This document shows positions 20,102 through 56,573 of a stretch of DNA of 64,000 nt, piece by piece. The number at the start of each line of letters is the position of its first letter. Position 1 is the first letter of the stretch. The DNA is from Microcoleus sp. (GTDB lineage Bacteria > Cyanobacteriota > Cyanobacteriia > Cyanobacteriales > Microcoleaceae): positions 352,001-416,000 of the forward strand of contig JAYFMW010000003.1 in assembly GCA_042408215.1 (NCBI GenBank), written 5' to 3'. The notes below the pieces were generated by a model, which saw nothing but the letters and a program-made list of their open reading frames with translations, did not search any database and was not told where the DNA came from. Made by a program: the position numbers and the translations under genes.

Positions 20102-21586
20102 TTAGTAGTTCTGTGAAACCGGAGAATTTGAGGCTCCTGAAAAAGTCGGTGACACACTATTACTCGGTCCCGTACCATTCTTAGGCCGCTTCTTGATCAA
20201 GATCGGCTTGACACCGTTTTCGGCGATCGGCGCATCTTCCTGTTGAGCATAATCAGCGCCCATCCAAGCCGGACGGCTTTGATCGAAAGCCATTTGCAAT
20301 GCCGCAGCCGCGATCGCGTGGGAGTCGTACTCCTCGGATAGCTGAGACACCAGAGGTAAGAAAGATGCCATCCGTTCGCCAGCCAAAGCTTCGCGAACTT
20401 TACCCTGCATCTTTTCCAACTGACGCGCTTCGATTTGTGCCCGTGTCGGAATGTTTCGCACTGTTAAGCTCGATCGAACGTGGCGTTCAATTAAGCGCAG
20501 TTTCCGGCGATCGACTGGTTGAATCAGCGTAATCGCTGTCCCTTCCCGGCCAGCCCGGCCCGTGCGTCCGATCCGGTGAACGTAGCTTTCTACGCTGTCT
20601 GGTAAATCGTAGTTAATCACGTGACTCAAGTGATCCACGTCCAAACCACGGGCAGCGATATCAGTCGCTACTACCCAGCGCACCTGACATTGGCGGAACC
20701 GGTGCAGCAAACGTTCCCGCTGTGCTTGGTTCAAATTACCGTGATACTCATCAACGCTGTGGCCTGCTGCTTGCAGTTGGCTGGTGAGTTCTGCCGCCGA
20801 CTGCCGAGTCCGCACAAAAATCAGCGCCGATTCCGGGTCTTCCATTTCTAGAATTGGCTGTAAAGCTCTTGCTTTCGACCAGCCCCGCGGAATCATGTAC
20901 ACGCCTTGGCTGATCCGCTTCGGCGTTGCTTTCGGCTGTTCTACGGTGACGTTGACTGGGTTACGCAAATGTCTCGCCACCAATTTGCGAATCGTAGCTT
21001 CCATCGTCGCCGAGAAAAACGCTGTTTGCCGCTCTTGTGGTGCTGCATCCAGAATTTTTTCGACATCTTGGATAAAGCCCATGCTGAGCATTTCGTCAGC
21101 TTCATCCAAAACCAGCCACTTCAGCTTGTCTAGTTTCAGGCTGCCCCGACTTAACATATCTAATATGCGTCCGGGTGTACCGACAACGATGTGAACGCCG
21201 CGCTTCAAACGCTGCATTTGGCGATCGATCGACTGACCACCGTACACTGTCAGAACTTGCAGAGAGCGGCCGATTTTCACCGGGCCATCGCTACTGATAC
21301 CGCTCAAATCACGGATGGCTTCAGTCACTTGCATCGCCAATTCGCGAGTTGGTGTCAGCACCAGTGCTTGCACCGCAGTTAAGTCAATATCTATCCGCTC
21401 CAAGATGGGCAATGAGAATGCTGCTGTTTTGCCTGTTCCTGTTTGGGCTTGACCCACAACGTCGCGGCCTGCTAGCAAGTGAGGAATTGCTTGTACTTGA
21501 ATGGGAGTAGGTTCTGTAAAGCCTAGTGTTTCCAGATGGAGAACGAGTTCTTCCGAAAGACCTAAGCCTTCAAACAATAAATTCAT
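20102..21586 (-). CDS. crhR: DEAD-box RNA helicase, CrhR type
   Basis: AQTGTGKT, PTRELA, DEAD, SAT, HRIGRTGR; downstream of rimO. Confidence 0.9.
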   Translation of the reverse strand: MNLLFEGLGLSEELVLHLETLGFTEPTPIQVQAIPHLLAGRDVVGQAQTGTGKTAAFSLPILERIDIDLTAVQALVLTPTRELAMQVTEAIRDLSGISSDGPVKIGRSLQVLTVYGGQSIDRQMQRLKRGVHIVVGTPGRILDMLSRGSLKLDKLKWLVLDEADEMLSMGFIQDVEKILDAAPQERQTAFFSATMEATIRKLVARHLRNPVNVTVEQPKATPKRISQGVYMIPRGWSKARALQPILEMEDPESALIFVRTRQSAAELTSQLQAAGHSVDEYHGNLNQAQRERLLHRFRQCQVRWVVATDIAARGLDVDHLSHVINYDLPDSVESYVHRIGRTGRAGREGTAITLIQPVDRRKLRLIERHVRSSLTVRNIPTRAQIEARQLEKMQGKVREALAGERMASFLPLVSQLSEEYDSHAIAAAALQMAFDQSRPAWMGADYAQQEDAPIAENGVKPILIKKRPKNGTGPSNSVSPTFSGASNSPVSQNY

Positions 21587-21779
21587 TAATGCTCCTAGTA
21601 ACGAGTTTTAGCCTTCTAAGTTGCCCAACTCGGATGCGGATTTCTGCTTTAGGGCAGGAACTCATAAGAGTTCTGTATGGTGCTGCGCCGGGACGCCCAC
21701 TTTCTTAAATAGCAATCGAGTATAGGGCATATCTGTCGAGGGTGACTAATTTACCCACTCGACAGCAGTCTTTGATTTT

Positions 21780-21925
21780 GTGATCTAGCCTACATTCACC
21801 GCAAGCGGTTTCTGTCGAGGCTTCCAACAATCCTGAACAGGATTTATTGGACTTCCTTTGAGGTATTCGCCAGTTGTCCCTCTCGGGCTTTTTATAGTGA
21901 GGATCATCCGCAGCCCCACTTTACT
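21780..21925 (-). ncRNA. Orphan TnpB reRNA-like structured RNA ending in TCAC (paralog of 33487-33635)
   Basis: Shares blocks AGTGGGGCTG, CCTCACTATAAA, TACCTC.AAGGAAG, GAAGCC, GCTTGCGGT, TCAC with the psbZ-upstream element. Confidence 0.55.
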
Positions 21926-22155
21926 ACCAGCGTAGTAACAGCTTTGTTGGTTTAATGGCGATCGGGCAATGCTTTGCCTGCAATGTTGAGCTGGGAATGG
22001 GCCGATGGTCAGCGCCTATCCATCTCAACACTTCTTCGGGATACCGTTGTGGTGTGGGTCGGACGGCTCGCACTTCGACTACGATCGGTGACCCGTGGTG
22101 GAAGCTGGTTTCTGGCTTTATATTAGCATAACTCTTTACATTCAGAAACAAAACA

Positions 22156-22507
22156 GTGAACTACCTGACGCTGACATAAAGGTACAGCACGGGCTTCCCA
22201 ATTCATTGGCAACAGCCACCAGAACTCCGTAATTCTATTGGTCTTACATTGCCTCCAAGGGCAGGAGTCCTGGTTCCCAAGACCCATACTTTTTCTGGCA
22301 ACACGTACCTATGAGCTTGGTTTTCGCTTACGGCATTGGTGGTCAAGATGTACCAATTTTATCATAAGAATTGCTCGTTTCCTCATCCACCCCGTCGCTG
22401 TTTCCCGCTGCGCTTGGAATTCGACTCGCGGGAGTGGAATCGTCAACTCACTGGCATTCATCCCGACGCGAGGCTACGCTCCTAGCGCGGGGCTGATGCT
22501 GCTTTAG
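22156..22507 (-). mobile_element. Non-autonomous IS200/IS605-type mini-element retaining tnpB right end
   Basis: TTAG|CTAAAGCAG left end with hairpin; GGAGGCAATGTAAGACC...GGGAAGCCC...GGTAGTTCAC right end; no transposase or nuclease ORF. Confidence 0.65.
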
Positions 22508-23842
22508 CTAACGAGACAGTTCCAGCGATACTTTTACTTGACCGTGAAGGTCGTAGAAATCTGCGTCAGTAATTTTCACAGATACGATCGAACCCAACCT
22601 CGCCTCTCCTTCCACATAGACCAATCCATCTACTTCTGGGGAGAACCGGGCGGATCTACCAATCAACTCACCTGTCTCTGGGCGTTCTTGTTCTATCAGG
22701 ACATCAACTACCTGACCGACAGACTCTTGATTCTTTTTCAATGATATAGGTTGTTGTGCCGCCATTACTGCATTTCGCCGCATTTCCATTATTTCTGCTG
22801 GTAATTGCTGAGGCAAACTGTAGGCTGGGGTGCCTTCTTCGGCGGAAAATGTGAATACTCCGACGTGATCGAATTCGTGGCGCTTGACAAATTCCAGCAA
22901 GTGTGCTGCGTGTTCGTCTGTTTCGCCGGGGAAGCCGACAATAAAAGTTGTCCGCATCACGGCACCAGGAATTGATGCTTTCAGTCGATCGACTATAGCA
23001 TCATTAATCCCAGCTTGACTAGGCCGATTCATCGCCCGCAGAATTTCGGGATGGGAATGTTGCAGGGGTAAATCCAAGTATGGCAAAACGTTGGGCGTTT
23101 CTCGGATGGCTGCGACAACTTGCGGAGTCAAACCCGTGGGATAGGCGTAGTGCATCCGAATCCAAGGTACATCTACTTTACCCAAAGCCCGAAGCAGTTC
23201 TGCCAGTTTTGGTTCGCCGTAGATATCTTTGCCGTAGTTGGTGGTAATTTGAGAAATTAGGATAATTTCTTTTACCCCTTCCGAGGCCAATTGCTTAGCT
23301 TCGGCGACAATAGATTCGATCGTCCGCGATCGCTGATTTCCGCGCAAGTGCGGGATAATGCAAAATGCACAGCGGTAATCGCAGCCTTCTGCTATTCGCA
23401 GATAAGCGACACCTTCCGATGTCGTGCGGTAGCGGGGAGTAGTTTCATCAGCGATGTAAGTTGGTTCTTTCGAGACGAGAGAAACTCGATCGCCCTTTTC
23501 AACTCTTTGAATGACATCGACTATTTTATGATAATCGCCAGTGCCGACAATTGCGACTGCTTCCGGCAATTCGTCCAGCAATTCCTGTTGAAAATGCTGT
23601 GCCATGCAGCCGGTGATGACTACTTTTTTATTAGCTTCGGCTAATTCTACCAGGGTGCGGACTGATTCTTCTCGCGCAGCTTGGATAAAACTGCAAGTAT
23701 TGACGACGACGTAATCGGCTAATTCTTCATTAGAATCGACTTGATAGCCTGCTTGAGCCAGCAAGCCAATCATGTGTTCGGTGTCTATGCGATTTTTTTC
23801 GCAGCCGAGGTGGGTAAATGCGATCGTTGGCTTCGTTGCCAT
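22508..23842 (-). CDS. rimO: Ribosomal protein S12 methylthiotransferase
   Basis: [20 protein letters not shown] radical-SAM motif, TRAM domain. Confidence 0.95.
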
Positions 23843-24209
23843 GCAGTAATTAGTTGCTGTTGCGATATTTCTAAGAACGTTTTATGATATCACACAATTT
23901 GAGAAGTTGCAATGTGTAGGTGGATGCGATCGGGGAATTACGCACCAAAACCCAAGAAACCGGGTTTTTAGGAGAATACTTGGTTACGATCGCACAAACG
24001 CGAAAAAACCAGGTTTCTGACCACCCGTGCGTAGATGATTCGGCGGTTGAAACCGCTACTATACAAACAAAGTCCGCCTCCGCGGACTAAGAAATAAAGG
24101 CTTTTTGGTTTATTGCTGTCAAATTTAAGTTTTTTTAGTTGATGAAATAGTAGCCAACCCATCGTAATATCATCGAATCCTCGATCGCCCTTTGCATAAT
24201 TTGTACTCG

Positions 24210-24833
24210 CTAGTTTGGCAAGCCAGCAAGAAAAATCTTTTCTGCCGTTAATTTCAATTCTGGAAAAGCCAGCGACTCAACTATGTCATTTTCCCGAAAC
24301 TGACTGATTTGATATTCCCCGTCAACCAACTGGTAAACCGAGATAGTAGGTTGTTTCGGATTGCCAATGAAGCGTCTGCCGCCCAAAGCAGCATAATCCA
24401 CAACCCAATATTCCGAGATACCCAATCTTTCATAATCAGCTACTTTTACCAGGTAATCATCTTGCCAGTTCGTGCTGACTACTTCTACAGCCAGTCGCAC
24501 CGAAGACCCCATCGTGATGACGGATTCTTTTTTATAGCGCGATTCGTTTGCAAGTGCGGTTCTGTCTAGGATTATTACGTCTGGTTGATAACCTGCTTCG
24601 TCACGGGAAAGTTTGAGTAAGCAGTGACCAGGGATTGAGTAGGATAATTGCAGTCGTCTGATTTCAAAATTGATTTCACTGGAAAGAAAACCTATAACGT
24701 CGGCATGGTCGCCAGTTCCTAAAGACATTTCAACAATTACTCCATTGTGTAGTTCGTACTTGTGGACAGAGTTCTCTGGATACCAAGCAACGAACTCATC
24801 AAACGTGATTGTTTTGGATATGGTTTGGATCAT
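24210..24833 (-). CDS. Uma2 family (PD-D/EXK) endonuclease
   Basis: YELHNG, PDV, LAVEVVS, GISEYWVVD. Confidence 0.88.
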   Translation of the reverse strand: MIQTISKTITFDEFVAWYPENSVHKYELHNGVIVEMSLGTGDHADVIGFLSSEINFEIRRLQLSYSIPGHCLLKLSRDEAGYQPDVIILDRTALANESRYKKESVITMGSSVRLAVEVVSTNWQDDYLVKVADYERLGISEYWVVDYAALGGRRFIGNPKQPTISVYQLVDGEYQISQFRENDIVESLAFPELKLTAEKIFLAGLPN

Positions 24834-24985
24834 GTTGTGGTTTCCTCTGTCTCGTGATTAGTATGCGGAAAGCTCAAATATTACACAAGGGTTTACGACA
24901 ACGTTGTTCGTAATCCTTGACATAGGAAGTGAAGTTTGGTATAGTCTCGCGTCCATAATATCAAAATACCGATCGCGCCGATCGA

Positions 24986-25160
24986 CTAAATCTGAAAGTT
25001 GATCCGTAGGGTGCGTCGCTGCGAGATCTTTGATATAACTGGCAGATTATAGATGGCGACGCACCCTACTTGCTAAATTTGAAAGTTGATCCGTAGGGTG
25101 CGTCGCTGCGAAATCTTTGATATAACTGGCAGATTATAGATGGCGACGCACCCTACTTGC
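24986..25160. repeat. Two tandem 88-bp REP-doublet units (GTAGGGTGCGTCGC...GCGACGCACCCTAC); third copy at 32147-32210
   Basis: Perfect 14-bp GTAG-starting inverted repeats around near-identical spacers. Confidence 0.85.
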
Positions 25161-25208
25161 TACCCAAAATAATATTGTAGGGAAACGGCACTGCCGTGTC
25201 CTAATTTA

Positions 25209-26252
25209 TTAGTTATTTGGGATTTCACATAAGGCATTTTGCAACATACTCTCAAAAAAAGTATCCAGAGAAGTCCCTGATGCTTTGGCCATAGTAGAAA
25301 GCACACTTTTCTGAGCAAAAGAACAGTACAGCCCCGCTTCCAAGAACCAAGGTTGTCCCTGGGGATCGATGCGAAAATCAAATAGACTATAATCGCGACA
25401 GCCCAAAGCGATGTGGCATTTTCTGGCCATCGCCCAAACTCTCTCAGTTACCGGATCGCTGATGTCAACTATCCACGATTTGGTACTATCTTTAGCGGCA
25501 TAACCCAAGCTTCCATCATCATTTTGTTTGAGCTTATCAGCATAACTCCGAATCGGTTTGGTATCAGCATCTAGAGCATACTCTTCTAGCGGTAAACAGA
25601 CTAACTCGCCTGCTTTGACGATAATTCCACAGCGAACTTCTCTACCCAATTCAATGAATTTTTCTACTAGCACTTCATCTGAATGAGTCAATGCTATCTG
25701 CAAAGCTGCATCATAGTCAGCAGCATTTTTCACGAAAGCCACTCCAATGGAATTATCACTATTCACTGGCTTAAGTACGGCTGGGAAATCAATCGAAGGT
25801 CGATCGCCCCCACGGACAACTTCTCCTAATGGTACACTTACCCCAGCGGCTGCTACCACTGCTTTAGCCTTCGCTTTATCAGCCACCAGCGCCATCAACT
25901 CTGCGGGATTACCCACATAAGGAATACTCAGCAAATCGAACAAACTGCGGTATTGAGTCATGCCGGGGATGCAAAACATCTGGGGGACCATTACGTCAAT
26001 TTGGAGGTCGGTCAGCACCTGCACAGCGCCCGCTAAAGACATGGGATTAGCGGCCGCGATCGCACTCGGCTCCAGAGATGTCGGAAAACGCCATTGGCGA
26101 TCGGGAGAAATATAGGCAATATGAAATTCATACAGTGCTGAATTAGCCGTATTCTCCAAACAATCTTGGGCATAAAGCCGCGACAAATTACAGTAAAAAT
26201 CACTGACAGCCGATCCAACTAAATGCAAAACCCGTAATACTGACATACTCAA
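25209..26252 (-). CDS. mysD: D-Ala-D-Ala ligase-like mycosporine-glycine:amine ligase
   Basis: VLHLVGS, VPQMFC, DNS.GV, FDFRID, LEAGLYCSF; cluster context. Confidence 0.9.
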   Translation of the reverse strand: MSMSVLRVLHLVGSAVSDFYCNLSRLYAQDCLENTANSALYEFHIAYISPDRQWRFPTSLEPSAIAAANPMSLAGAVQVLTDLQIDVMVPQMFCIPGMTQYRSLFDLLSIPYVGNPAELMALVADKAKAKAVVAAAGVSVPLGEVVRGGDRPSIDFPAVLKPVNSDNSIGVAFVKNAADYDAALQIALTHSDEVLVEKFIELGREVRCGIIVKAGELVCLPLEEYALDADTKPIRSYADKLKQNDDGSLGYAAKDSTKSWIVDISDPVTERVWAMARKCHIALGCRDYSLFDFRIDPQGQPWFLEAGLYCSFAQKSVLSTMAKASGTSLDTFFESMLQNALCEIPNN

Positions 26253-27640
26253 TCTCCCCCTATTTCCACAAGTTTGCCAATATTAAAATCAATCCGAATC
26301 CACTCTTTCGGCTTCTGCAAATTTCCCCATAACAACAATGGAATTTGCCAATGATGCACCATCAAAAATGGTAATGGATCGTCCCAATCGAAGATAGCAT
26401 CTTTGCCTTTGGTGATAATTTGTAACCGCTCAAAAACTAGCTTTGGCGATCGCAAATGAGTCACCAAGCGCCAAATTTCATGGTAAATCCAGTAAGTCGG
26501 GCGACTAGATGCCAAGGGCTGCACAGTCTCAGGTAGAGCATCGTGTTCTAAATAAGCCTTCGCTACATCGGGATGGTTGTAAAACATCGTGATGGCTGAA
26601 TGGGTGCGGGGATTACATTCGATCGCATAAATCTCTCCATCATCCGCCGCCTGAATGAAATCAAAGGAAACTTGTCCAGTCAAATTGAGACTTTTGGCAA
26701 ACTGACGAATCCAATTTTCGATATCCGGGCGATCGACATTTTCATAGTTTACCTGAAATGCCGATGATTCACAACAACAGTGCAACTGAACATGACCATC
26801 ACGGATGGTACTGTGAGTGCAGAACTCTTGCCCCGGAATATACTCTTGCATAATCCAAGGTTTACCCTCAGAAATTGGTAAAGACTTGACAAAAGCGGCA
26901 GTTTCGGCTGGGGTTTCGCAGGGTAATTTAGTTAAGTCTAATCTGCGGATAGAATCGTAGGGAATACTTTTGATAATGTATTGGCGCTGTGCATCACTAA
27001 AATCAAAATCGATTACTTGCTGGGGATTGGTAATCCGGTAGGACTTCGGGACTCGCAGCCCCAATGCGATCGCAGTGGCAGCAAATGTATACTTATCATC
27101 CAATCGTTGCAGCATTTCCACATCGACGTGCATTACCGTACAGTGGGGAGAAAGCACGCTTTGGACTTCGGCATCGTAGTAACTGGCGACGGGACTACAC
27201 ACGGGAACATAAACATTCACTCCCTCTTTTTGGACAATTTTTAAGAGAGCTTGGGGGTATTCCTCTGTCTGGGGATTTGGTACTGTGTAAAAGCGATCGA
27301 TCGCCCAAGAGTAACGATGACCTGTCAGCCAGTATTTCTCGGTTTCAACCAAAATTACCCGATGACCGGCCCTATGGAACGATCGGGCTAGCTGTAATGC
27401 CTTAGTCATCTTGCCGCCACCGATCAAAATCGTTTGCGGAGTGGTTGTAGTCGATCGCGACTGGAACGGTTTAGTAAGTATAGCTCTGAGTAAGGCTATT
27501 ATCGTCAAAGCGAGATTCAGGGGCATTACTAAAAGCAGCAAAGTCAGAGTTGCTATTGTTTTAAGTGCTGTTTGGAAGCGCCGATTCCCCGCATTTGTCT
27601 CCTGTTCAGATGGCATCGCTGCAACTGAAATTGTTTTCAT
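26249..27640 (-). CDS. mysC: ATP-grasp ligase (mycosporine-glycine synthase); start may extend to 27688
   Basis: GGKMTKALQLARSF, IECNPRTHSAIT, IDFNIGKLVE. Confidence 0.9.
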   Translation of the reverse strand: MKTISVAAMPSEQETNAGNRRFQTALKTIATLTLLLLVMPLNLALTIIALLRAILTKPFQSRSTTTTPQTILIGGGKMTKALQLARSFHRAGHRVILVETEKYWLTGHRYSWAIDRFYTVPNPQTEEYPQALLKIVQKEGVNVYVPVCSPVASYYDAEVQSVLSPHCTVMHVDVEMLQRLDDKYTFAATAIALGLRVPKSYRITNPQQVIDFDFSDAQRQYIIKSIPYDSIRRLDLTKLPCETPAETAAFVKSLPISEGKPWIMQEYIPGQEFCTHSTIRDGHVQLHCCCESSAFQVNYENVDRPDIENWIRQFAKSLNLTGQVSFDFIQAADDGEIYAIECNPRTHSAITMFYNHPDVAKAYLEHDALPETVQPLASSRPTYWIYHEIWRLVTHLRSPKLVFERLQIITKGKDAIFDWDDPLPFLMVHHWQIPLLLWGNLQKPKEWIRIDFNIGKLVEIGGD

Positions 27641-27753
27641 AATAATTTTCTGGTATGACATACTAACGGGAGCGTCCCGATTTTGCAAATATACTCGTAG
27701 GGGCGAAGCCTTCCGGCAGTAAATCTCTGGTTATGACGAATTAATTCTCTATG

Positions 27754-28089
27754 TTAATCGACATCTAAATGCAGTTTTAGAGCAATATTTACAAACTGCA
27801 TAATTTCCTCATTTAAACTCCCGACTGCATCGCTGGTAATTCGCTGTTAAATTGTCCGTATTTGCTGTACTTGCACTTTAGAAGATTTGGATAAACCGCT
27901 ATCCTCTGGATTTAGCAATACCTCGAAAGGGTAGACACGGGTTATATTCGAGGTAATTGGTAGAATTGTAACTGTATTGGCGGCACGGTTATTAGCATCA
28001 TTGCTTACCACCAATACGGGACGGCTTTTGTCTATCTCAGAACCGACTGTAGGACTGAGATTCGCATAGTAAATTTCACCACGTTTCAT
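27754..28089 (-). pseudogene. mazF: PemK/MazF toxin with premature in-frame stop at codon 81
   Basis: MKRGEIY..L.P..GSE..K.RP.LVVS; frame continues after TAA for 30 codons ending ALKLHLDVD. Confidence 0.8.
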
Positions 28090-28300
28090 CTGTTAATCCA
28101 TCGGCAACTGTTAAATCCCAAACGGAGTCTACTTCGCTAGATGCTTGTCGGTAAGCAGATTCTAGTTCTTGATTCCGCAACAATTCCAAAGCTAATTCAA
28201 TTACTTTGGATGGCGATTTGCATCCTTTAGCAATTTTGTAGCTTTCAATGAACTGTAGTAGTGATTGTGATAGGGAAATTGATATTTCTTTAGCTTGCAT
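28076..28300 (-). CDS. Ribbon-helix-helix antitoxin (CopG-like)
   Basis: ISISL...SKVIELAL, WDLTVADGL tail; overlaps toxin start. Confidence 0.75.
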   Translation of the reverse strand: MQAKEISISLSQSLLQFIESYKIAKGCKSPSKVIELALELLRNQELESAYRQASSEVDSVWDLTVADGLTDETW

Positions 28301-28371
28301 TATCTTAGCAATTGGTAATTACAAAGATTTCTACTTAACTATAGCACAAGTAGTAAATCAGGAGACGGCAG

Positions 28372-28577
28372 TGCCCATTAGTGTCAACTTAAGCCCGAAA
28401 GCCATGATAAATCTGGTTTTTACCATAGTCCAGATCCCCCTAAATCCCCCTTAATAAGGGGGACGAGAGAAAAGACTCCTGTCCCCCCCTTCTTAAGGGG
28501 GGTTAGGGGGGATCTGGATTTAATAGTCAAACAGCAATCTCTGACTGGATTTGAGCTTAAGTTGACAGCTATGGGCA
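28372..28577. mobile_element. MITE-like element with TGTCAACTTAAGC TIRs enclosing a CCCCCTAAATCCCCCTT/AAGGGGGGTTAGGGGG palindromic repeat
   Basis: TIRs at 28382-28394 and 28555-28567; similar inner palindrome at 19801-19898. Confidence 0.75.
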
Positions 28578-28600
28578 TTCCCGTGTCCTTATTAACATTG

Positions 28601-29404
28601 CTAAACGCGCCGAATCAAGGTAATCCCATCTCTGAGCGGCACTAACACTTGCTCTACGCGGGGATCGTCAACTAGAGCCTGATTGAATTTAGCGATCGCA
28701 ACTCCGTTAGCAGTAGCAGTACCGGACAAATAGGGCTGTCCCTGCATCAGAGTATTGTCGGCACAAATCAAGCCATTGGGAGCCAACAGCCCAGTGGTGA
28801 GCAGTAAATCGAGATAATCTGTGTATCCAGCTTTATCAGCATCGATAAACACCAAATCGAACACTTCTCCAGCAGCAGCCAATTGTTTCATGGTTTCTAG
28901 GGCTGGTGCGACTCGCACTGAGATTTTGTGACCAACCGTCGATTCCTGAAAACACTTTTGGGCAAATTGTGCGACGTAAGTATCTACTTCGCAGGCTACT
29001 ACTTCTCCATCAACAGGAAGGGCTTCAGCCATCGCTAGTGCTGAGTAGCCAGTGAACATCCCGATTTCCAGCACGCGCTGTGCTTTGGTGAGATGGACGA
29101 GAAATTTCAGCATTTGCCCCTCCACATGGCCGGAGAGCATCTCTTGTTCCAAGTGGCGCACTGTCTCGCCGTCGGAGAATCGCTGACTCCAATCTTCTGA
29201 TTGGGTGCGTTTTACTAAGGTGGCTAAATCCGCAGATTCCGCTGTGGTGCAAAGGTTCAGGTAGGGATCGAGACCATTTGCTAATTCGTAGGCTTGTTGC
29301 AATTCTGCCTTGAAAGCTCGATCGATCCCATCTTGAGACTCTACCTGCTGGACAAGACTTTCCAGTAAAGAGGCTAAAATCCCGACTGGGGTAACAGGTC
29401 TCAT
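28601..29404 (-). CDS. mysB: O-methyltransferase (4-deoxygadusol forming)
   Basis: RPVTP.GI, MLSGHVEGQ, LEIGMFTGYS, FIDADK. Confidence 0.9.
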   Translation of the reverse strand: MRPVTPVGILASLLESLVQQVESQDGIDRAFKAELQQAYELANGLDPYLNLCTTAESADLATLVKRTQSEDWSQRFSDGETVRHLEQEMLSGHVEGQMLKFLVHLTKAQRVLEIGMFTGYSALAMAEALPVDGEVVACEVDTYVAQFAQKCFQESTVGHKISVRVAPALETMKQLAAAGEVFDLVFIDADKAGYTDYLDLLLTTGLLAPNGLICADNTLMQGQPYLSGTATANGVAIAKFNQALVDDPRVEQVLVPLRDGITLIRRV

Positions 29405-29406
29405 CT

Positions 29407-30645
29407 TTATACCCCGGCTGTGGAAAGAGTCCCAACTTTGTCCAATACCACGTACATATTCTCGCCATCACCATTGCGCGGATAGCCATGACAGATTTTT
29501 TGATGCACCGCTAGGGCTTCATCCAACTCAGTTCGAGTCAAATCGTTCATGAAAAAGCAGTCACCAATGGGGCATGGAGCCGCCGCGCGTTGAAGGCCAT
29601 CGCGGGTACGGGCGATGGATGTTGTGGCTTTCCAGAGCAGTTCTGATGTGAGATAGGGGCTATCAATTGCTAGTCCGAGCCGACTCATTAATCCTAGGAT
29701 GCGATCGCGATCGGCGATCGAAATGTAGCCCCGTTGTTGAGCAATCGTCGCCGAAAAAGCCATGTCGATAGCGACACTGTGGCCGTGGAACATCGGAATT
29801 TCCGGTGTTAGTTCCAGCGTCGGACTCCAAGTGTGACCATAAGCAATCACTCGATCCAAGTCTAGCTCGTGTAGGTTTGGTACTTCTAATGCCAGCATTG
29901 ACTCAATGGCGTTGTAGGTTAAGCGATGTGCTACTTCGCGCAGTTCAGATGTGCCGTCTAGATACCCAAAATGGCTATGCAGCAATGCTTCACCGTAGTT
30001 TTCCAGCAACTCAAAGATTTCTTTGTTCCCAACAACCGCGATCTTAATTAACTCTGCCATGCCGTTGCGTATTTGGTCGATCGGCAGAGTTTTTAGGAAG
30101 GAGAAATCTAAAATTACTTTCTTTGAAGCGTGGTAAGCACCGAGGCGGTTTTTCAGTTTACCGTGGTTCACGGCTACCTTGATTGCCACACTGGCATCAA
30201 TCAGCCCAATTAGGGTTGTCGGTACGCGAATGTAGTTGGTCCGACGGCGATAGGAGGAGCAGGCGAAACCAGTTACGTCAGTAGTCAATCCACCACCAAC
30301 CACCAACACAGGTTCTTTCCGCACGAGTCCGAAATCAACGAAGGCATCTATGATGCTTTCAAAAGTTGTTAAGGTCTTATCCGGTTCCTTGATATTCACT
30401 GGAAAGACTGTTAAATCTATCTCGTGATATTTGAAATAAGCCTGCATCTGCTTGCCATACAGACCATACACTGTTTCGTCTACAACCATTAAACAGCGAC
30501 CAAATTGGCGGTAACTATCGGCAATTTCTGGATTTTCAAGCTTGAAAGCACCATCTACATAGAGCAAGCTGAAATCAATTTTTTCGTACCCTTCAATATG
30601 AAAAGCGCGATCGGTAGATGTAAACGTAGCTTGAATGTCACCCAT
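29407..30645 (-). CDS. mysA: Sedoheptulose-7-phosphate cyclase (demethyl-4-deoxygadusol synthase)
   Basis: [39 protein letters not shown]. Confidence 0.92.
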
Positions 30646-31141
30646 AAAATTTTTGCACTTTCGTGTTGATAAGTAACTGTAAGTATCCGGGCGATCGTCA
30701 AAACTATCCATCCTTTTGCTGGCCAACTTCCTAGGCATTAACTTGACAAATTTGTCATTTAATATGATCTTAACAATCCACCTAAAAATTTACTTTCAGA
30801 GCTGTTTGTTAAGAATAGGTTAAATACTGCTTTTCGAGTATTTATACTTAAAGTCCTGCTAGGAGCAAGTTTAGATCGCCTCAATACTTGCACAAAACTT
30901 AACATAACGGATTTCTCATATTTATGCAACCTGATGCCACAAAATCCGATAAAACTGTTGAGAAATATTAGAGAATCGGCGACGATCAGTTCAAAACTTT
31001 ACAATCAATCAGTATTTGACAAAGTTAATGTGTTCTAGAATACTCAGTAAATCCAAGGGCGATCGCTAGCAGAAATAAATGTATAAACTTATACAGAAAG
31101 TTCTATGAGTGTTTGAAATTGACTTAGATCGTCAATTCAGC

Positions 31142-32137
31142 TTAGGCTGGAAACACCAAGGATAAATCTAGGGACTCGGGAAACCCCGGAATTACGACAG
31201 TCTCATCAGGGAGAAGAACTCGTTGCGATCGATAATTGAAATCACCTTGTCTTTTTCGATCGGGTTCGCTGTGCATTTCCAGTTGATTGTCAACCAAATT
31301 AAATATCCAAGAATTAGCAATTCCAGCTTCAGCATAGAGAGATAACTTAGTTCTTCGATCGTACTTTAAAGTAGAATCAGAAACCTCAATTACTAACAAG
31401 ATATCCGCAGGTTCTGGGTGAGAAGATAAATAATTATCAGAGCGATTGCGGGCGATAACCACATCAGGTTCTGGTTCGCTATTTGTAGTAGATAAAATTC
31501 TCGGCTCTTGTACGCGCAAATGAGCAAGTCTTGCGAGTATAATGACTAATTACCGAAGTAAAAGACTGTTACAAACAGAGTGAAACCTACCTTTAGCAGC
31601 CATTTTGATAATTTCTCCGCGAATCAATTCAACTCGGTCAATCGATTTGAGATTTGAGATTTGAGATTTGAGATTTACCCCACGTATAAATGCGGGGGCT
31701 TGAGGATTTTAGATTTGGGATTTTGGATTGATTCCACGGATCAATCCGGGGGCTTGTACCACCTTTGAAATTATTGGTCAATCGATTTGAGATTTGAGAT
31801 TTGAGATTTGAGATTTACCCCACGTATAAATGCGGGGGCTTGAGGATTTTAGATTTGGGATTTTGGATTGATTCCACGGATCAATCCGGGGGCTTGTACC
31901 ACCTTTGAAATTATTGGTCAATCGATTTGAGATTTGAGATTTGAGATTTGAGATTTACCCCACGTATAAATGCGGGGGCTTGAGGATTTTAGATTTGGGA
32001 TTTTGGATTGATTCCACGGATCAATCCGGGGGCTTGTACCACCTTTGAAATTATTGGTCATCGGGAGCGAAAAATCCGAGTTCTCCCAAACGGTGATATT
32101 CTGCGATCGAGAATCGTTTTGTAGTTACAGTAGTCAT
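31142..32137 (-). pseudogene. Uma2 family endonuclease split by a 420-bp tandem insertion, plus a nonsense codon
   Basis: MTTVTTKRFSIAEYHRLGELGFFAPDD (from 32137) joins RVELIRGEII...LLR*LV...RVQEP after removing the insert. Confidence 0.85.
31641..32060 (-). mobile_element. Three tandem identical 140-bp copies of a TGAC-bounded small element
   Basis: Units 31641-31780, 31781-31920, 31921-32060; homologous to 57292-57625. Confidence 0.85.
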
Positions 32138-32255
32138 AATTAATCCGTAGGGTGCGTCGCTGCGAGATCTTTAATATAACTTGCAGATTATAGATGGCGA
32201 CGCACCCTACTTGCCATCAGATTAGATGTACCACATACACAGGTCATATACTGTA

Positions 32256-32804
32256 TTAGGGTCGATCGCCCGACAGCACTTGAACAGCAGTCGCCGCAGG
32301 TAATTTATCGTAAGAATTTGCGGTCAACCCGTTAACTTGGCGCATCAAAGTGCCCATTTCTAAAGCACTCATCGCATAATTCCAGCCCAAATTGCTCTTA
32401 ATCCCTGCCCTTTCCAAAGCTTGCTGCATCGTGTCAGTCGTCACAACTCCAAAAATCACCGGCACCCCTGTTTGAAAAGCAGCCGCTGCAATTCCCTTAG
32501 AAACTTCACCCGCTACAAAATCGAAATGAGGAGTTTGACCTCGAATCACCGCACCCAGACAAATCACTGCATCATAGCGGTGAGAAAGAGCAGCTTGACG
32601 AGCAATCAAAGGAATCTCAAAACATCCCGGAACCCAATAAAAATCAACCTGACTACCATGAGGATCAATATCAACCCCGTGGCGTTTCAAACAATCTTGA
32701 CATCCCTCCAAAAGTTTGTTGACCACCATGTCGTTAAAACGACCGATGACAATCGCAAACCGCAAAGATTCTGTCTGAGTAAAAGTTCCCTCGAAAACTG
32801 CCAT
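32256..32804 (-). CDS. ribH: 6,7-dimethyl-8-ribityllumazine synthase
   Basis: [31 protein letters not shown]. Confidence 0.95.
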
Positions 32805-33199
32805 AATGTTCTACTTTAGATTTTTAGATTTTAGACTGACGGATCGACTTCTTCCTTCTTTCTTCTTTCTTTTTCCTTCTTCCTTCTTCCTGAAGCGGCG
32901 GTTGGTGCCCTTCGACTACGCTCAGGAACCGCGGAGCGTCGCACGCTCGCGTAGTCGAACCATTCCTGCCCTTCGACTACGCTCAGGAACCGCGTAGTCG
33001 AAGGCTCTTCTTCCTTCATCCTTCTTCCTGACTTCGGATCTATGAGTTGTGAGCTTTGAATTTTGGCAATGAATTTATCTCTTGAAAAAATGACTTCAAT
33101 TAATAATTCACTCGCCACTTAAGACTACTAATTATAGCATAAATTTTAGTCAAAATTCAAAACTCACAACTATTTTGGATGTTTTAGTGCTAGGGTAAT

Positions 33200-33391
33200 T
33201 TAAACTACCAAAAAGTTTAAAACAGCCACGGCAATAACTAGCAGAAACCAGAGACCAGAACCTGCGAAAATCAGTGTTTTAGACTGATTCCAGTTTTGGG
33301 GAGAAGCATAAGCAACTGGAACGCCGACCACCATAACAAAGGACAGCAGTACCAGACCCAGTAAAACCACTTGAAACAGAATTGATAACAT
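33200..33391 (-). CDS. psbZ: Photosystem II protein Z (start at MLSILFQ)
   Basis: [23 protein letters not shown] ribosome-binding site upstream. Confidence 0.93.
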
Positions 33392-33486
33392 CTTTTCTCC
33401 TTTCGATATAACCGTGCGATAAAATTCGACTTGCCCGTGCAAATTCTCAATTGCGCGAACAGATGTCAGCGACACTTGAGATTTGT

Positions 33487-33705
33487 GTGACGTACTCCCA
33501 ACAGCAACCGCAAGCAGTATGCAGTGGGCTTCTTAAGAGTCCTGTTAAGGATATCAAAAGCTTCCTTCGAGGTACTACAAGTTATTTCCCTCTACAGCGT
33601 TTTATAGTGAGGAACACGTCCAGCCCCACTTGTTGAATACAAATCGCGCGTCTTTCATCCCAGACCAAATCAAAGATTATGGTCTGGGGATTCCCGTCTG
33701 CTTAG
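33487..33705 (-). mobile_element. Non-autonomous IS200/IS605-type mini-element with reRNA-like right end
   Basis: TTAG|CTAAGCAG left end with CCCAGACC/GGTCTGGG hairpin; GAAGCCCAC...GGGAGTACGTCAC right end. Confidence 0.65.
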
Positions 33706-33858
33706 CTAAATTTTACCATTGTTGGCCGCTGTGGCTGAAACTCGGATCAATACTAGACCAAGCTTGGGTTAAAGTGTGATTAGCTCGCCCGCTGTCAGTA
33801 GGCGAGAAATTGTACCTATCTCGGTGAGAGATGCGGGCTCTTTGGATATATATCGGCT

Positions 33859-37431: not shown

Positions 37432-38740
37432 CCGCTCTGAAAAACTTACCCAAAACCAGACAAACCCCGACAAACCGGAGATTAAATAGTTTTAGTGTTT
37501 TCTTCCTGCTTCTCACGGTCAGTAATCCGATCCCATCCACAGGCCGATCGCCCGTAAGCTACGGGCTGTACAAGGAAAGTTTTAAAACTCTTAAACCTTC
37601 GTGTTTTAAATTAACGGCGGCATTTTCATCTCTATCTTGGACATGACCACAGTTTTCACACTTATATACTCTATCAGCAAGAGTCAAATCTTGTTTATGT
37701 CCACAATTAGAACATGATTTAGAAGACGGATACCAGCGGTCAACTATTACTAAATGTGAACCATACAACTGGCATTTATATTCCAACTGTCTTCGGAATT
37801 CAAACAAACCTAAATCGGCTATAGCGCGAAGCTCATTTAGGGTTTTTCAGCATCCCTTTGACGTTTAAATCTTCAATACAGATCGCATCAAAAGTTTTGG
37901 CCAGCCATGTAGTCAATTTGTGCAAATAGTCTTTTCTGATATTCGCAACGTGCGAATGAAACCGTCCTAATTTAATCTTTGCTTCCTGATAAGATGCGGT
38001 TCCTTTTTGCTGGCGACTAAGTGACCGAGATAATTGTCTAAGTCTTCCTAGAGCCGCTTTCAGAGGTTTTATATTGGGGATAACTTGACCATTGCTCAAC
38101 GTAGCCAGTGATTTAATTCCCAGATCAACACCTACAACTTCGATTGGTTCTCTCATTGGCTGTGACGGTGTTTCTCTCTTGAAACTTACAAACCACTTAT
38201 CTGCTTTTTTACTAATGGTGAAACTTTTAACTTTTCCCAAAGCTGGTAATTTCTCAAAAGTTCTGACCTTACCAATATTAGGAATCTGTACCCAAGTAGA
38301 ACCCACAATTGTGGAACCATCACAAGTAAAAATATCGTGAAATCCTTTCTTTTTGAAGTTGGGAAATCCCTTTTCTGGTTGTTTAAAGAAATTGTTCAAA
38401 GCATCTCTAACATGGCGGGTCGCATAATTATGACATCCTTTCGACACTTCATAAGTCCAAGGTTTTTCTGATTTTACCTCAGCCGTAAATCGCTTATTCA
38501 GATCTATGGCCGTTGGTAATTTAATTTTGTTTTCTGGTTGAGTTTTATGATGTTCTAAGCTGGTAATTAAAATTTGAAGACCCCAATTGTAAGCATATCT
38601 AGCTACCCCTGCTGATTTAGCCAGCAAAGTACGTTGTTTATTGTTGGGGTTAAGTTCGGTTTTAAAACCTAGCAGCATTTTACGAACTGTCAAAGCGAAT
38701 GCTAATTTCAGTTTAATGATTATATCATGCTTTGTCAATC
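37432..38740 (-). mobile_element. IS607-type tnpB-only element; left boundary uncertain
   Basis: tnpB remnant plus right end ...GTAAGTTTTTCAGAGCGG; no serine recombinase ORF. Confidence 0.7.
37559..38678 (-). pseudogene. tnpB: TnpB RNA-guided nuclease disrupted by TGA plus frameshift near 37830
   Basis: MLLGFKTELNPN, GVDLGIK, IEDLNVKGM, then AIADLGLFEFRRQLEYK, SSKSCSNC, DRDENAAVNL in another frame. Confidence 0.88.
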
Positions 38741-53204: not shown

Positions 53205-53315
53205 AGGTTTGGTTTTTGTGGGACAAATTGTGATATCTTTCTAAAACCTGAAAGCGGGAAAGTCCGGTGCAATTCCGGCGCTGTGCCGCAACTGTGAAAG
53301 TCAGAATGCCGATTT
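53205..53315 (+). promoter_or_regulatory. Cobalamin riboswitch (compact form)
   Basis: GGGAA..CCGGTGCAATTCCGG..CTGTGCCGCAACTGT..AGTCAG core upstream of cobG. Confidence 0.85.
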
Positions 53316-53361
53316 CGGGTTGACTTGTTTATTTCCCTGCGTCGCACGGGGAGGAGTTTCT

Positions 53362-55064: not shown

Positions 55065-55290
55065 GTCAGGAACTCAGGTCTAAAGACACGCTCGCTTGTA
55101 AGAAATTACAAGCTATTCTGACCAGACCCCTTTCACGAGGAGACGTTATTTAGGTCACGATACCGGAGAATGCGACGCTAGTTTTCCGCTCTATCATCTG
55201 CAATTAAACAGTTTTAAAGTCACTGAAACAGTGTTGCAGGTCAAAAAAGCCTTTATAACCAGGTCGAAGCGAACATTACAAGCAATTGGA
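55065..55290 (+). ncRNA. IscB omegaRNA (HEARO-like) scaffold
   Basis: GTCAG...CTGACCAGA, ACGTTA, GAATGC..GCTAG..CGCTCT, TTAAACAG..AACAGTG, GTCGAAGCGAACATTAC directly upstream of iscB. Confidence 0.8.
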
Positions 55291-55301
55291 GGGACACAAC
55301 A

Positions 55302-56573
55302 ATGTCTAATCTCGTTTTCGTACTTGATACCAAGAAAAAACCGCTCACACCCTGTAAGCCGTCAATAGCTCACAAGTTGTTAACGGCAGGAAAAGCTGCG
55401 GTTTTTAGAAGGTATCCATTTACCATCATTCTCAAAAAGGCGGTGACAGCAACTCCTAAATTAATTACTCTCAAATTAGATCCGGGTTCTCAAACTACGG
55501 GGATTGCTTTGGTTCAAGACGATCAAGTTATTTTTGGTGCTGAACTAACCCATCGAGGTCAAACAATTAAAGCGTCTTTGGAGTCCCGAAGCGAGTTACG
55601 TCAAGGAAGACGAAGCCGTCATACTCGTTATCGTCAGGCAAGATTTTTAAATCGCACCCGCTCGAAGGGTTGGTTAGCACCCTCCTTACAGCATCGAGTC
55701 GAAACTACTTTGACTTGGGTGACTAAGTTGATCAAACTTGCGCCCATCGGTTCAATTGTTCAAGAACTGGTCAGATTTGACCTGCAACAATTAGAAAATC
55801 CTGAAATTTCAGGCATTGAATATCAGCAAGGAGAATTAGCTGGCTACGAAGTTCGGGAATATCTCTTGAACAAATGGGACAGAAAATGCGCTTATTGCGG
55901 CGTAGAAAATGTACCATTGCAAGTAGAACATATTCACCCTAAAGCCAAAGGTGGCGGTAATCGCATTTCTAACCTTTGCCTTGCTTGTGAGAAGTGCAAC
56001 CTCAAGAAAGGCACTCAAGATATCAGGCAATTCTTAGTCAAGAAGCCCGACGTTTTGAAGCGCATTCTTGCACAAGCTAAACGTCCTCTCAAGGATGCAG
56101 CAGCCGTCAACTCTACCAGATGGGCATTGTTCAATCGCCTTAAAGAAACGGGATTGTCTGTTTTAAGTGGTTCGGGTGGATTAACTAAGTTCAACCGGAC
56201 TCGATTGAAACTACCTAAAACCCATTGGCTGGATGCAGCTTGTGTTGGTCAAGTTGAATCATTATCTGTGCTGACAAACAAGCCGTTGTTGATTAAGGCG
56301 ACGGGACACGGCACTCGTCAAATGTGTCGCACGGACAAATTTGGCTTCCCATCTCGGTATGTTCCTCGGAACAAGTTTGTCAAAGGTTTTCAGACAGGCG
56401 ACATCGTAAAAGCAGTTGTCACAAGTGGCAAGAAAATCGGTGAATATGTTGGTCGGGTTGCAGTTAGAACGACGGGTTCGTTCAATATCTCAGCCTCAGA
56501 ATTGGTGCAAGGCGTTGGTCATAAATACTGCAAAATAGTTCACCATAAAGATGGTTACAGTTACTTATTTTGA
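55302..56573 (+). CDS. iscB: RNA-guided endonuclease IscB
   Basis: VFVLD..KKPLTPC, RuvC-I LDPGS, Arg-rich helix, RuvC-II ELVRFD, HNH CAYC..EHIHP..CEKCN, RuvC-III HWLDAAC. Confidence 0.95.
   Translation: MSNLVFVLDTKKKPLTPCKPSIAHKLLTAGKAAVFRRYPFTIILKKAVTATPKLITLKLDPGSQTTGIALVQDDQVIFGAELTHRGQTIKASLESRSELRQGRRSRHTRYRQARFLNRTRSKGWLAPSLQHRVETTLTWVTKLIKLAPIGSIVQELVRFDLQQLENPEISGIEYQQGELAGYEVREYLLNKWDRKCAYCGVENVPLQVEHIHPKAKGGGNRISNLCLACEKCNLKKGTQDIRQFLVKKPDVLKRILAQAKRPLKDAAAVNSTRWALFNRLKETGLSVLSGSGGLTKFNRTRLKLPKTHWLDAACVGQVESLSVLTNKPLLIKATGHGTRQMCRTDKFGFPSRYVPRNKFVKGFQTGDIVKAVVTSGKKIGEYVGRVAVRTTGSFNISASELVQGVGHKYCKIVHHKDGYSYLF

Follow-up and report, generated by a model that had tools for sequence, protein, structure and literature searches.

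Two related RNA scaffolds lie on the minus strand of the window, by which we mean the whole 64,000-nt stretch of a Microcoleus sp. genome analysed here (contig JAYFMW010000003.1, positions 352,001 to 416,000, assembly GCA_042408215.1), one upstream of the DEAD-box helicase gene crhR and one upstream of psbZ. We give a probability of about 0.7 to the reading that both are the right-end element RNA (reRNA), and with it the right end, of non-autonomous IS605 mini-elements that resemble palindrome-associated transposable elements (PATEs) and belong to one cyanobacterial family, that the psbZ copy is recent and the crhR copy immobilised, and that neither regulates distant genes.

Two homologous scaffolds and their family

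A first-pass annotation of this DNA had reported ordered blocks shared by the two minus-strand sequences, and all the blocks that it named were found in the order it gave. TCAC terminates both scaffolds, and the spacer of the ATCCT..AGGA block is 4 nt long in each. The 16 nt beyond each scaffold also agree with the guide sequences that the annotation gave. In a global alignment 101 of 152 columns are identical, and the local alignment score is 137, with a maximum of 72 among 1000 shuffles; the two RNAs are real and homologous. Neither copy folded better than its shuffles as a single sequence (z -1.38 and 0.15), and the scaffold structure becomes apparent only from the family alignment. A scan of the whole window with Rfam at the gathering threshold gave no match at either scaffold, and when four related loci were scanned with the cut-off relaxed to E 1, nothing meaningful came back. 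Inspection of open reading frames (ORFs) agreed with the annotation that no tnpB is attached to either copy; in each, one reading frame still resembles the tnpB C-terminus.

An iterated profile from the two window copies yielded 17 family matches in the window's genome (G000; E <1e-3), and a covariance model also gave 17. Five of these overlap the 3' ends of tnpB genes encoding 460-480 aa, and a Y1 tnpA (transposase PF01797, E 1e-42) lies divergently beside three of these genes; the others are two broken tnpB versions, two partial copies and eight members of a short class without tnpB, both window copies included. The annotation had likened the pair to reRNA-type RNAs at IS605 tnpB right ends and had proposed mapping a model of them to tnpB 3' ends as a check. 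The two-copy profile does reach the tnpB-overlapping copies (E 1e-13 to 4e-10), so the proposed mapping came out in favour of that assignment. All five cognate TnpBs retain the RuvC D-E-D residues. As a side observation, the clade of the cognate TnpB at G000:C13:40007-41386 has a degenerate zinc ribbon with two cysteines left there, its D-E-D triad being intact.

Family members share one left end, a TTAG target and a TCAC end, and autonomous tnpA-tnpB and tnpB-only members are present in the same genome. Of 68 rows from the left-end scan, 23 had cross-matched either the right-end hairpin or the opposite strand and were set aside; TTAG precedes 44 of the 45 matches kept, a count that includes single insertions seen again in sister strains. 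This bears out the annotation's choice of TTAG as the target motif. The copies sit in different flanks and at variable positions. With the covariance model, all 61 genus genomes were matched (2-53 copies each), as were 17 of 121 genomes across the phylum, a patchy distribution as expected of a mobile family. The 53 model matches fall in genome G134, apparently a burst of the compact element. In a sample limited to rows with enough upstream DNA (6 rows with short upstream DNA were excluded), full-length scaffolds of 133-141 nt were orphans in 51 of 51 cases and tnpB-attached scaffolds had other lengths, the compact scaffold being about 22 nt shorter than the coding form.

Covariation in the scaffold

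In a structure drawn by hand on the alignment of 50 orphan scaffolds, 88.4% of cells pair, compared with 81.1% in shuffles and 39-46% in slid controls; RNAalifold alone gave only 12 pairs, and since the fuller structure was drawn from the same alignment, the pairing score leans towards it. Two-sided changes were seen at 18 of the 39 pairs, a kind of count that kinship among the sequences inflates. A pseudoknot joins the stem-1 loop to the bases just before the terminal AC (-6 to -3), and one of its pairs is AU in 24 sequences and GC in 22. At the level of the family we thus see a 5' stem, a pseudoknot and a right-end hairpin, and the covariation supports the TnpB reRNA fold including the pseudoknot, which the orphan scaffolds keep; in the window's crhR copy the pseudoknot is degraded, and most crhR orthologs retain 4 of its 5 pairs. 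As the orphan copies encode no protein, the constraint must act on the RNA or on the DNA end. The annotation's suggestion of a conserved structure is in line with this.

The psbZ copy

The psbZ element consists of a left end, the last tnpB codons and the right end (coordinates of all features are collected in Table 1). Its left end, which the first-pass annotation had not noticed, is intact (33648-33705) and is the same as that of the genome's autonomous tnpA-tnpB elements; the annotation had also missed the 15 further copies of the family in this genome. The element is missing at all 29 fetched loci of relatives, and none of 55 genus genomes aligns across it at psbZ; the same element was found at psbZ in three further genomes (G121, G122 and G127), with the guide partly deleted in G127. 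In the empty allele L054, TTTAG is joined directly to the putative guide, with 1 difference in 16 positions and no duplication. Because relatives have this site empty, the psbZ 'guide' is simply native psbZ leader. Judged from these alignments, insertion at psbZ was recent and scarless, and by analogy with IS605 elements this copy may still be competent. A self-splicing intron (IStron) was considered and set aside, the psbZ element being only 219 bp.

We looked for both RNAs in assembled contigs from four RNA runs, which speak to presence only and not to strand, ends or a single transcript. Contigs 33255-33694 (run X7) and 33336-33661 (run X12) bridge the element and psbZ. The crhR stretch is present in fourteen RNA runs: single contigs from three studies extend from the scaffold into crhR (X1 21075-22319, X2 21000-22329, X7 21174-22209), and in run X12 two overlapping pieces cover the stretch. 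The annotation had placed both RNAs in transcribed leaders of core genes, and these contigs agree. One contig ends at 33694 with adapter, near the predicted psbZ start, and psbZ transcription would probably start at the element's first bases.

The crhR copy

At crhR the insertion is far more widespread. BLAST cover shows the copy in 54 of the 55 other genomes of the genus, and 42 of 43 fetched genus loci have it; in one species, G096, the scaffold is interrupted by another IS end. None of the seven crhR loci from outgroup genera has the insertion; in two, TTTAG runs ungapped into the homologue of the guide. The junction motif has decayed, reading TTGAG in 36 of 42 orthologs, and with TTGAG in place of the target motif homing of this copy should be void. 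The left end is doubtful: 7 of 500 shuffles score as high as the remnant, and the left-end hidden Markov model missed it. By these comparisons the insertion at crhR, about 300 bp long, is the older of the two, and it has lost its left-end start and target motif. Both copies share a scarless insertion 3' of the motif, gap-free empty sites and the lack of tnpA or tnpB inside; as regards likeness to PATEs, the psbZ copy has both ends in common with autonomous IS605 elements, and the crhR copy has the right end and a weak left end. Other fixed copies at further loci show every stage of decay.

A hairpin abuts the crhR-copy scaffold; its folding energy is at most -3 kcal/mol in 38 of 42 orthologs, and it contains a TAnnnT hexamer at 5-12 nt in 37 of 42. 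We first favoured this hexamer as a promoter of the RNA's own and then downgraded the idea, because its spacing varies (7-12 nt) while the hairpin is constant.

Substitution rates were taken from a tree of the 42 orthologous crhR loci. Changes per site number 0.74 in the 5' half of the scaffold, 0.66 in the left-end remnant and 2.13 at fourfold crhR sites, which gives ratios of 0.35 and 0.31 to the fourfold rate; the 3' half, at 1.54 per site, is not significantly below the fourfold sites (p 0.08). A control intergenic region gave a ratio of 0.59, with 69-nt windows at 0.43-0.88 and none lower, this control being one region with a partly different genome set. Within the scaffold, no change falls in stem 1 or the A-rich linker, against up to 9 in loops, stem 1 is invariant across 39 distinct orthologs, and five pairs have two-sided changes among the crhR orthologs alone, all of them closely related (91% column identity).

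On the PATE-like reading, by what is known of IS605 biology, TnpA supplied in trans would move the mini-element; RNA transcribed from the host promoter would load TnpB, also supplied in trans; and the complex, its guide being the host flank, would cut the empty allele, so that repair restores the element. The psbZ copy would be a recent and still competent insertion, and the crhR copy an ancient, immobilised one, by now fixed within the crhR 5' leader and presumably unable to home. Several observations weigh against this reading. Decay alone fails at crhR, where stem 1 is invariant and the 5' half slow even though a close TnpB was not found in 24 of 60 genus genomes (36 of 60 have one, at a best E below 1e-180; draft genomes may miss IS copies, which bears on these counts). 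With the target motif gone and TnpB often absent, homing cannot readily explain the slow crhR core. No tnpB was seen with exactly the compact 133-141-nt scaffold at the sampled loci. Nor did the RNA contigs contain an excision joint, though contigs drop rare variants and cannot show absence.

The slow core would fit a crhR insertion of roughly 300 nt (decayed left end, hairpins and reRNA core) that host selection has preserved because it works as a structured 5' leader. Such a leader might adjust how stable the crhR mRNA is or how it is processed or translated, perhaps through a fold that responds to helicase or to cold when CrhR regulates itself. We regard this exaptation as plausible but less probable than not, and it gains from the presence of the copy almost throughout the genus despite the decayed junction, from the rate ratios and paired changes given above, from the RNA contigs of three studies that run through the scaffold into crhR, and from the single-contig genomes G054 and G099, whose best TnpB match is at most 37% identical and whose crhR copy is intact all the same. 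In Synechocystis, moreover, crhR is described as autoregulated post-transcriptionally, via RNA structure and RNase E, in bioRxiv 2021.03.26.437152, which makes a cis role the best guess for the slow core. Against exaptation stand the interrupted scaffold tolerated by G096, the rate of the 3' half, the single control region, the close relatedness of the orthologs, the degraded pseudoknot of the window's copy and the decay seen at other fixed copies. The annotation's alternative of domesticated leaders fails at psbZ, where few close genomes carry the copy, and keeps some plausibility at crhR. In its fullest form, which we advance as a tentative possibility, a mini-element landed in the crhR leader of the Microcoleus ancestor, gave up mobility and homing, and was domesticated without any protein: stem 1, the A-rich linker and the pseudoknot of its reRNA core would persist as a cis structure controlling the mRNA of a cold-induced helicase, and a few other leaders in the genus would have made similar captures.

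It is very improbable, on the other hand, that both copies are inert debris that neither loads TnpB nor affects the host, conserved through descent and general leader constraint. The unremarkable single-copy folding scores, the decayed copies elsewhere and the psbZ guide partly deleted in G127 are consistent with such fossils; the intact ends and target motif of the psbZ copy, the covariation among protein-free copies and the unchanged stem 1 and A-rich linker beside loops with up to 9 changes are not.

Guide targets and known systems

The first-pass annotation had also taken the RNAs for trans-acting guides of an undescribed dispersed guide or regulatory system. In the most specific version of this idea, fixed RNAs would load a nuclease-dead TldR-like TnpB and repress or activate distant host promoters. 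The several fixed copies at different loci of the genus (crhR, fur-adjacent and others), the near invariance of the crhR guide (0.12 changes per site) and the roughly four types of fur-adjacent seeds could be read in its favour. The guides, at the same time, are native flanks of scarless insertions, as the empty sites show, and target searches returned null levels. When the 16 guides of G000 were compared with 63,818 TTAG sites, seeds reached 6-10 nt, within the null; the best TTAG-adjacent seeds of the two window guides were 8 and 9 nt, with a null median of 8. A 10-nt guide seed next to TTAG occurred in 16 of 61 genomes, compared with 8 control matches, and ten of the 16 matches, on inspection, were six unrelated sites and one site common to four genomes. 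Five genomes contained no shared non-coding guide target with up to 3 mismatches; a candidate common to G054, G099 and G104 was rejected for its seed mismatch and position within apparent coding sequence. No viral contig matched TTAG plus the crhR guide, and seven viral pattern matches were dismissed, lacking both scaffold and tnpB.

No RuvC-dead TnpB homolog was found among 16 ORFs of G000 (one is truncated before RuvC-III; the genome has at least 150 TnpB-domain matches) or among 19 ORFs of genomes without the cognate protein. With no targets above chance and no nuclease-dead homolog among the ORFs examined, a TldR-like system is unsupported. The cognate TnpB keeps its catalytic residues and occurs patchily; we consider a trans-acting system of this kind highly unlikely. 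We note separately a distant, catalytically intact TnpB at G000:C6:1059166-1060488 and L283, at the same locus in G000 and G099 (94% over 3 kb), with no obvious right end.

Nor are such RNAs undescribed as a class. Meers et al. (bioRxiv 10.1101/2023.03.14.532601) describe PATEs whose omega-RNAs are used in trans, and Altae-Tran et al. (PMC10691335) describe standalone omega-RNAs that have neither effector nor transposase and reportedly act in trans. Like PATEs, the elements lack a protein gene, carry both ends and encode an omega-RNA that would depend on TnpA and TnpB supplied in trans, and they have a scarless joint and a transposon-adjacent motif (TAM) 5' of the left end; unlike them, this family is cyanobacterial, targets TTAG and has a compact 133-141-nt orphan-only scaffold, and its crhR copy is without left-end start and target motif. 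With the standalone omega-RNAs of OMEGA systems they share the mobilisation of RNAs in genomes that hold effector loci, whereas one copy here is fixed genus-wide and persists in genomes where no effector was found. The ISDra2 omega-RNA (PMC10097598), in its described topology, has the same 5' stem, pseudoknot before the guide, internal stems and right-end hairpin, and where a tnpB is encoded its 3' end overlaps the RNA; the target is TTGAT there and TTAG here, and the comparison is one of topology. TldR systems (bioRxiv 10.1101/2023.11.30.569447 and 10.64898/2026.09.22.753285) likewise place a TnpB-type guide RNA near host genes, whereas here there is no RuvC-dead protein among the ORFs examined, no adjacent effector and no promoter target next to a TAM, the guides being flanks of the insertions. 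Our literature search found no description of this cyanobacterial family, although preprint supplements may list such elements.

With this family comes a previously unannotated cyanobacterial reRNA, supported by covariation, whose TTAG motif is defined and whose scaffold is naturally short, a candidate compact TnpB guide; the family also shows that transposon guide RNAs in front of core genes can pass for host regulators. A functional crhR copy would mean that a TnpB guide RNA had been exapted, without its protein, as an mRNA leader, a case of which our literature search found no example.

Features of the window and further observations

Table 1. Features at the crhR and psbZ loci (window coordinates)
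Feature	Position	Strand	Basis or remark
crhR-type DEAD-box helicase	20102..21586	-	PF00270, PF00271, PF25399; 193 nt downstream of scaffold; the name rests on rimO synteny
Putative guide, native crhR leader past insertion point	21764..21779	-	16 nt; ungapped to outgroup empty sites L034 and L050
reRNA scaffold/right end, crhR copy	21780..21920	-	Genus-wide orthologs
Conserved hairpin abutting crhR-copy scaffold, contains TAnnnT hexamer	21921..21938	-	Ortholog comparison
Probable decayed left end, crhR-copy element	22013..22072	-	At junction defined by empty sites
rimO-type radical SAM methylthiotransferase, upstream	22508..23842	-	PF00919, PF04055, PF18693
psbZ (Ycf9)	33200..33391	-	PF01737, E 7.7e-27
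Putative guide, native psbZ leader past insertion point	33471..33486	-	16 nt; empty allele L054
reRNA scaffold/right end, psbZ copy	33487..33630	-	One frame reads like a tnpB C-terminal remnant
Complete non-autonomous IS605 mini-element, psbZ leader	33487..33705	-	219 bp; left-end model E 1.9e-17, with this copy among the model's training sequences
IS605 left end with subterminal hairpin	33648..33705	-	BLAST to C5, C13, C6 and C20 left ends, E 7e-10 to 2e-5
Target motif/TAM TTTAG	33706..33710	-	Directly 5' of psbZ element
Probable host psbZ -10 box, overlaps target motif	33710..33715	-	Conserved in empty alleles; function putative

The native crhR leader (21590-21763, minus strand) has 0.45 changes per site, is recognisable in outgroup genera and forms several hairpins without an Rfam match, which makes it a candidate cis-regulatory RNA in its own right. 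Few relatives carry the unrelated IS605-type right-end fragment that lies at 22155-22240 (minus strand), between the crhR promoter and rimO.

Further orphan copies were seen elsewhere. Next to a Fur-family gene, and downstream of it, a second fixed orphan copy occurs in many Microcoleus genomes (L109, L225-L228 and about ten similar loci) and is absent from G000; its scaffold is well kept, and about four different 8-9-nt seeds precede a constant flank. Other lineage-fixed copies lie in sense orientation before genes, in varied states of decay (L235-L237, L263-L266, L268, L271; L239, L244; G000:C5:448326-448464), the genes behind them being presumably ftn2/zipN, ppa and hoxE, names assigned from the translations. 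Among orphans at other loci, TAnnnT stands exactly 8 nt upstream of the scaffold in 6 of 22 (L160, L166, L178, L181, L190 and L197), which suggests a promoter of their own in some lineages, as if these were dedicated guide-expression cassettes. A sequence common to the downstream regions of two G000 copies was rejected as part of the family, being an unrelated element with 39 BLAST matches. This separate multi-copy element (G000:C30:582878-582980 and 38 other matches) always starts after ATAG, and two of its copies lie about 20 nt behind compact reRNAs.

Elsewhere in the window, a split tnpB of another family was found at 37559-38738 (minus strand), and its 95-aa C-terminal piece recurs at several genome sites. 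Genes for dehydroquinate-synthase-like, O-methyltransferase, ATP-grasp and D-Ala-D-Ala-ligase-like proteins occupy 25209-30738 (minus strand), which we take to be a mycosporine cluster, with a short PemK/MazF-family ORF between them (27847-28089); the name pdhA, used for a gene at another locus, is likewise our assumption from its translation. On the plus strand, a cobalamin riboswitch (AdoCbl-II) lies at 53240-53319, and a HEARO RNA (RF02033) followed by an RRXRR-HNH protein forms an IscB-type locus at 55065-56573.

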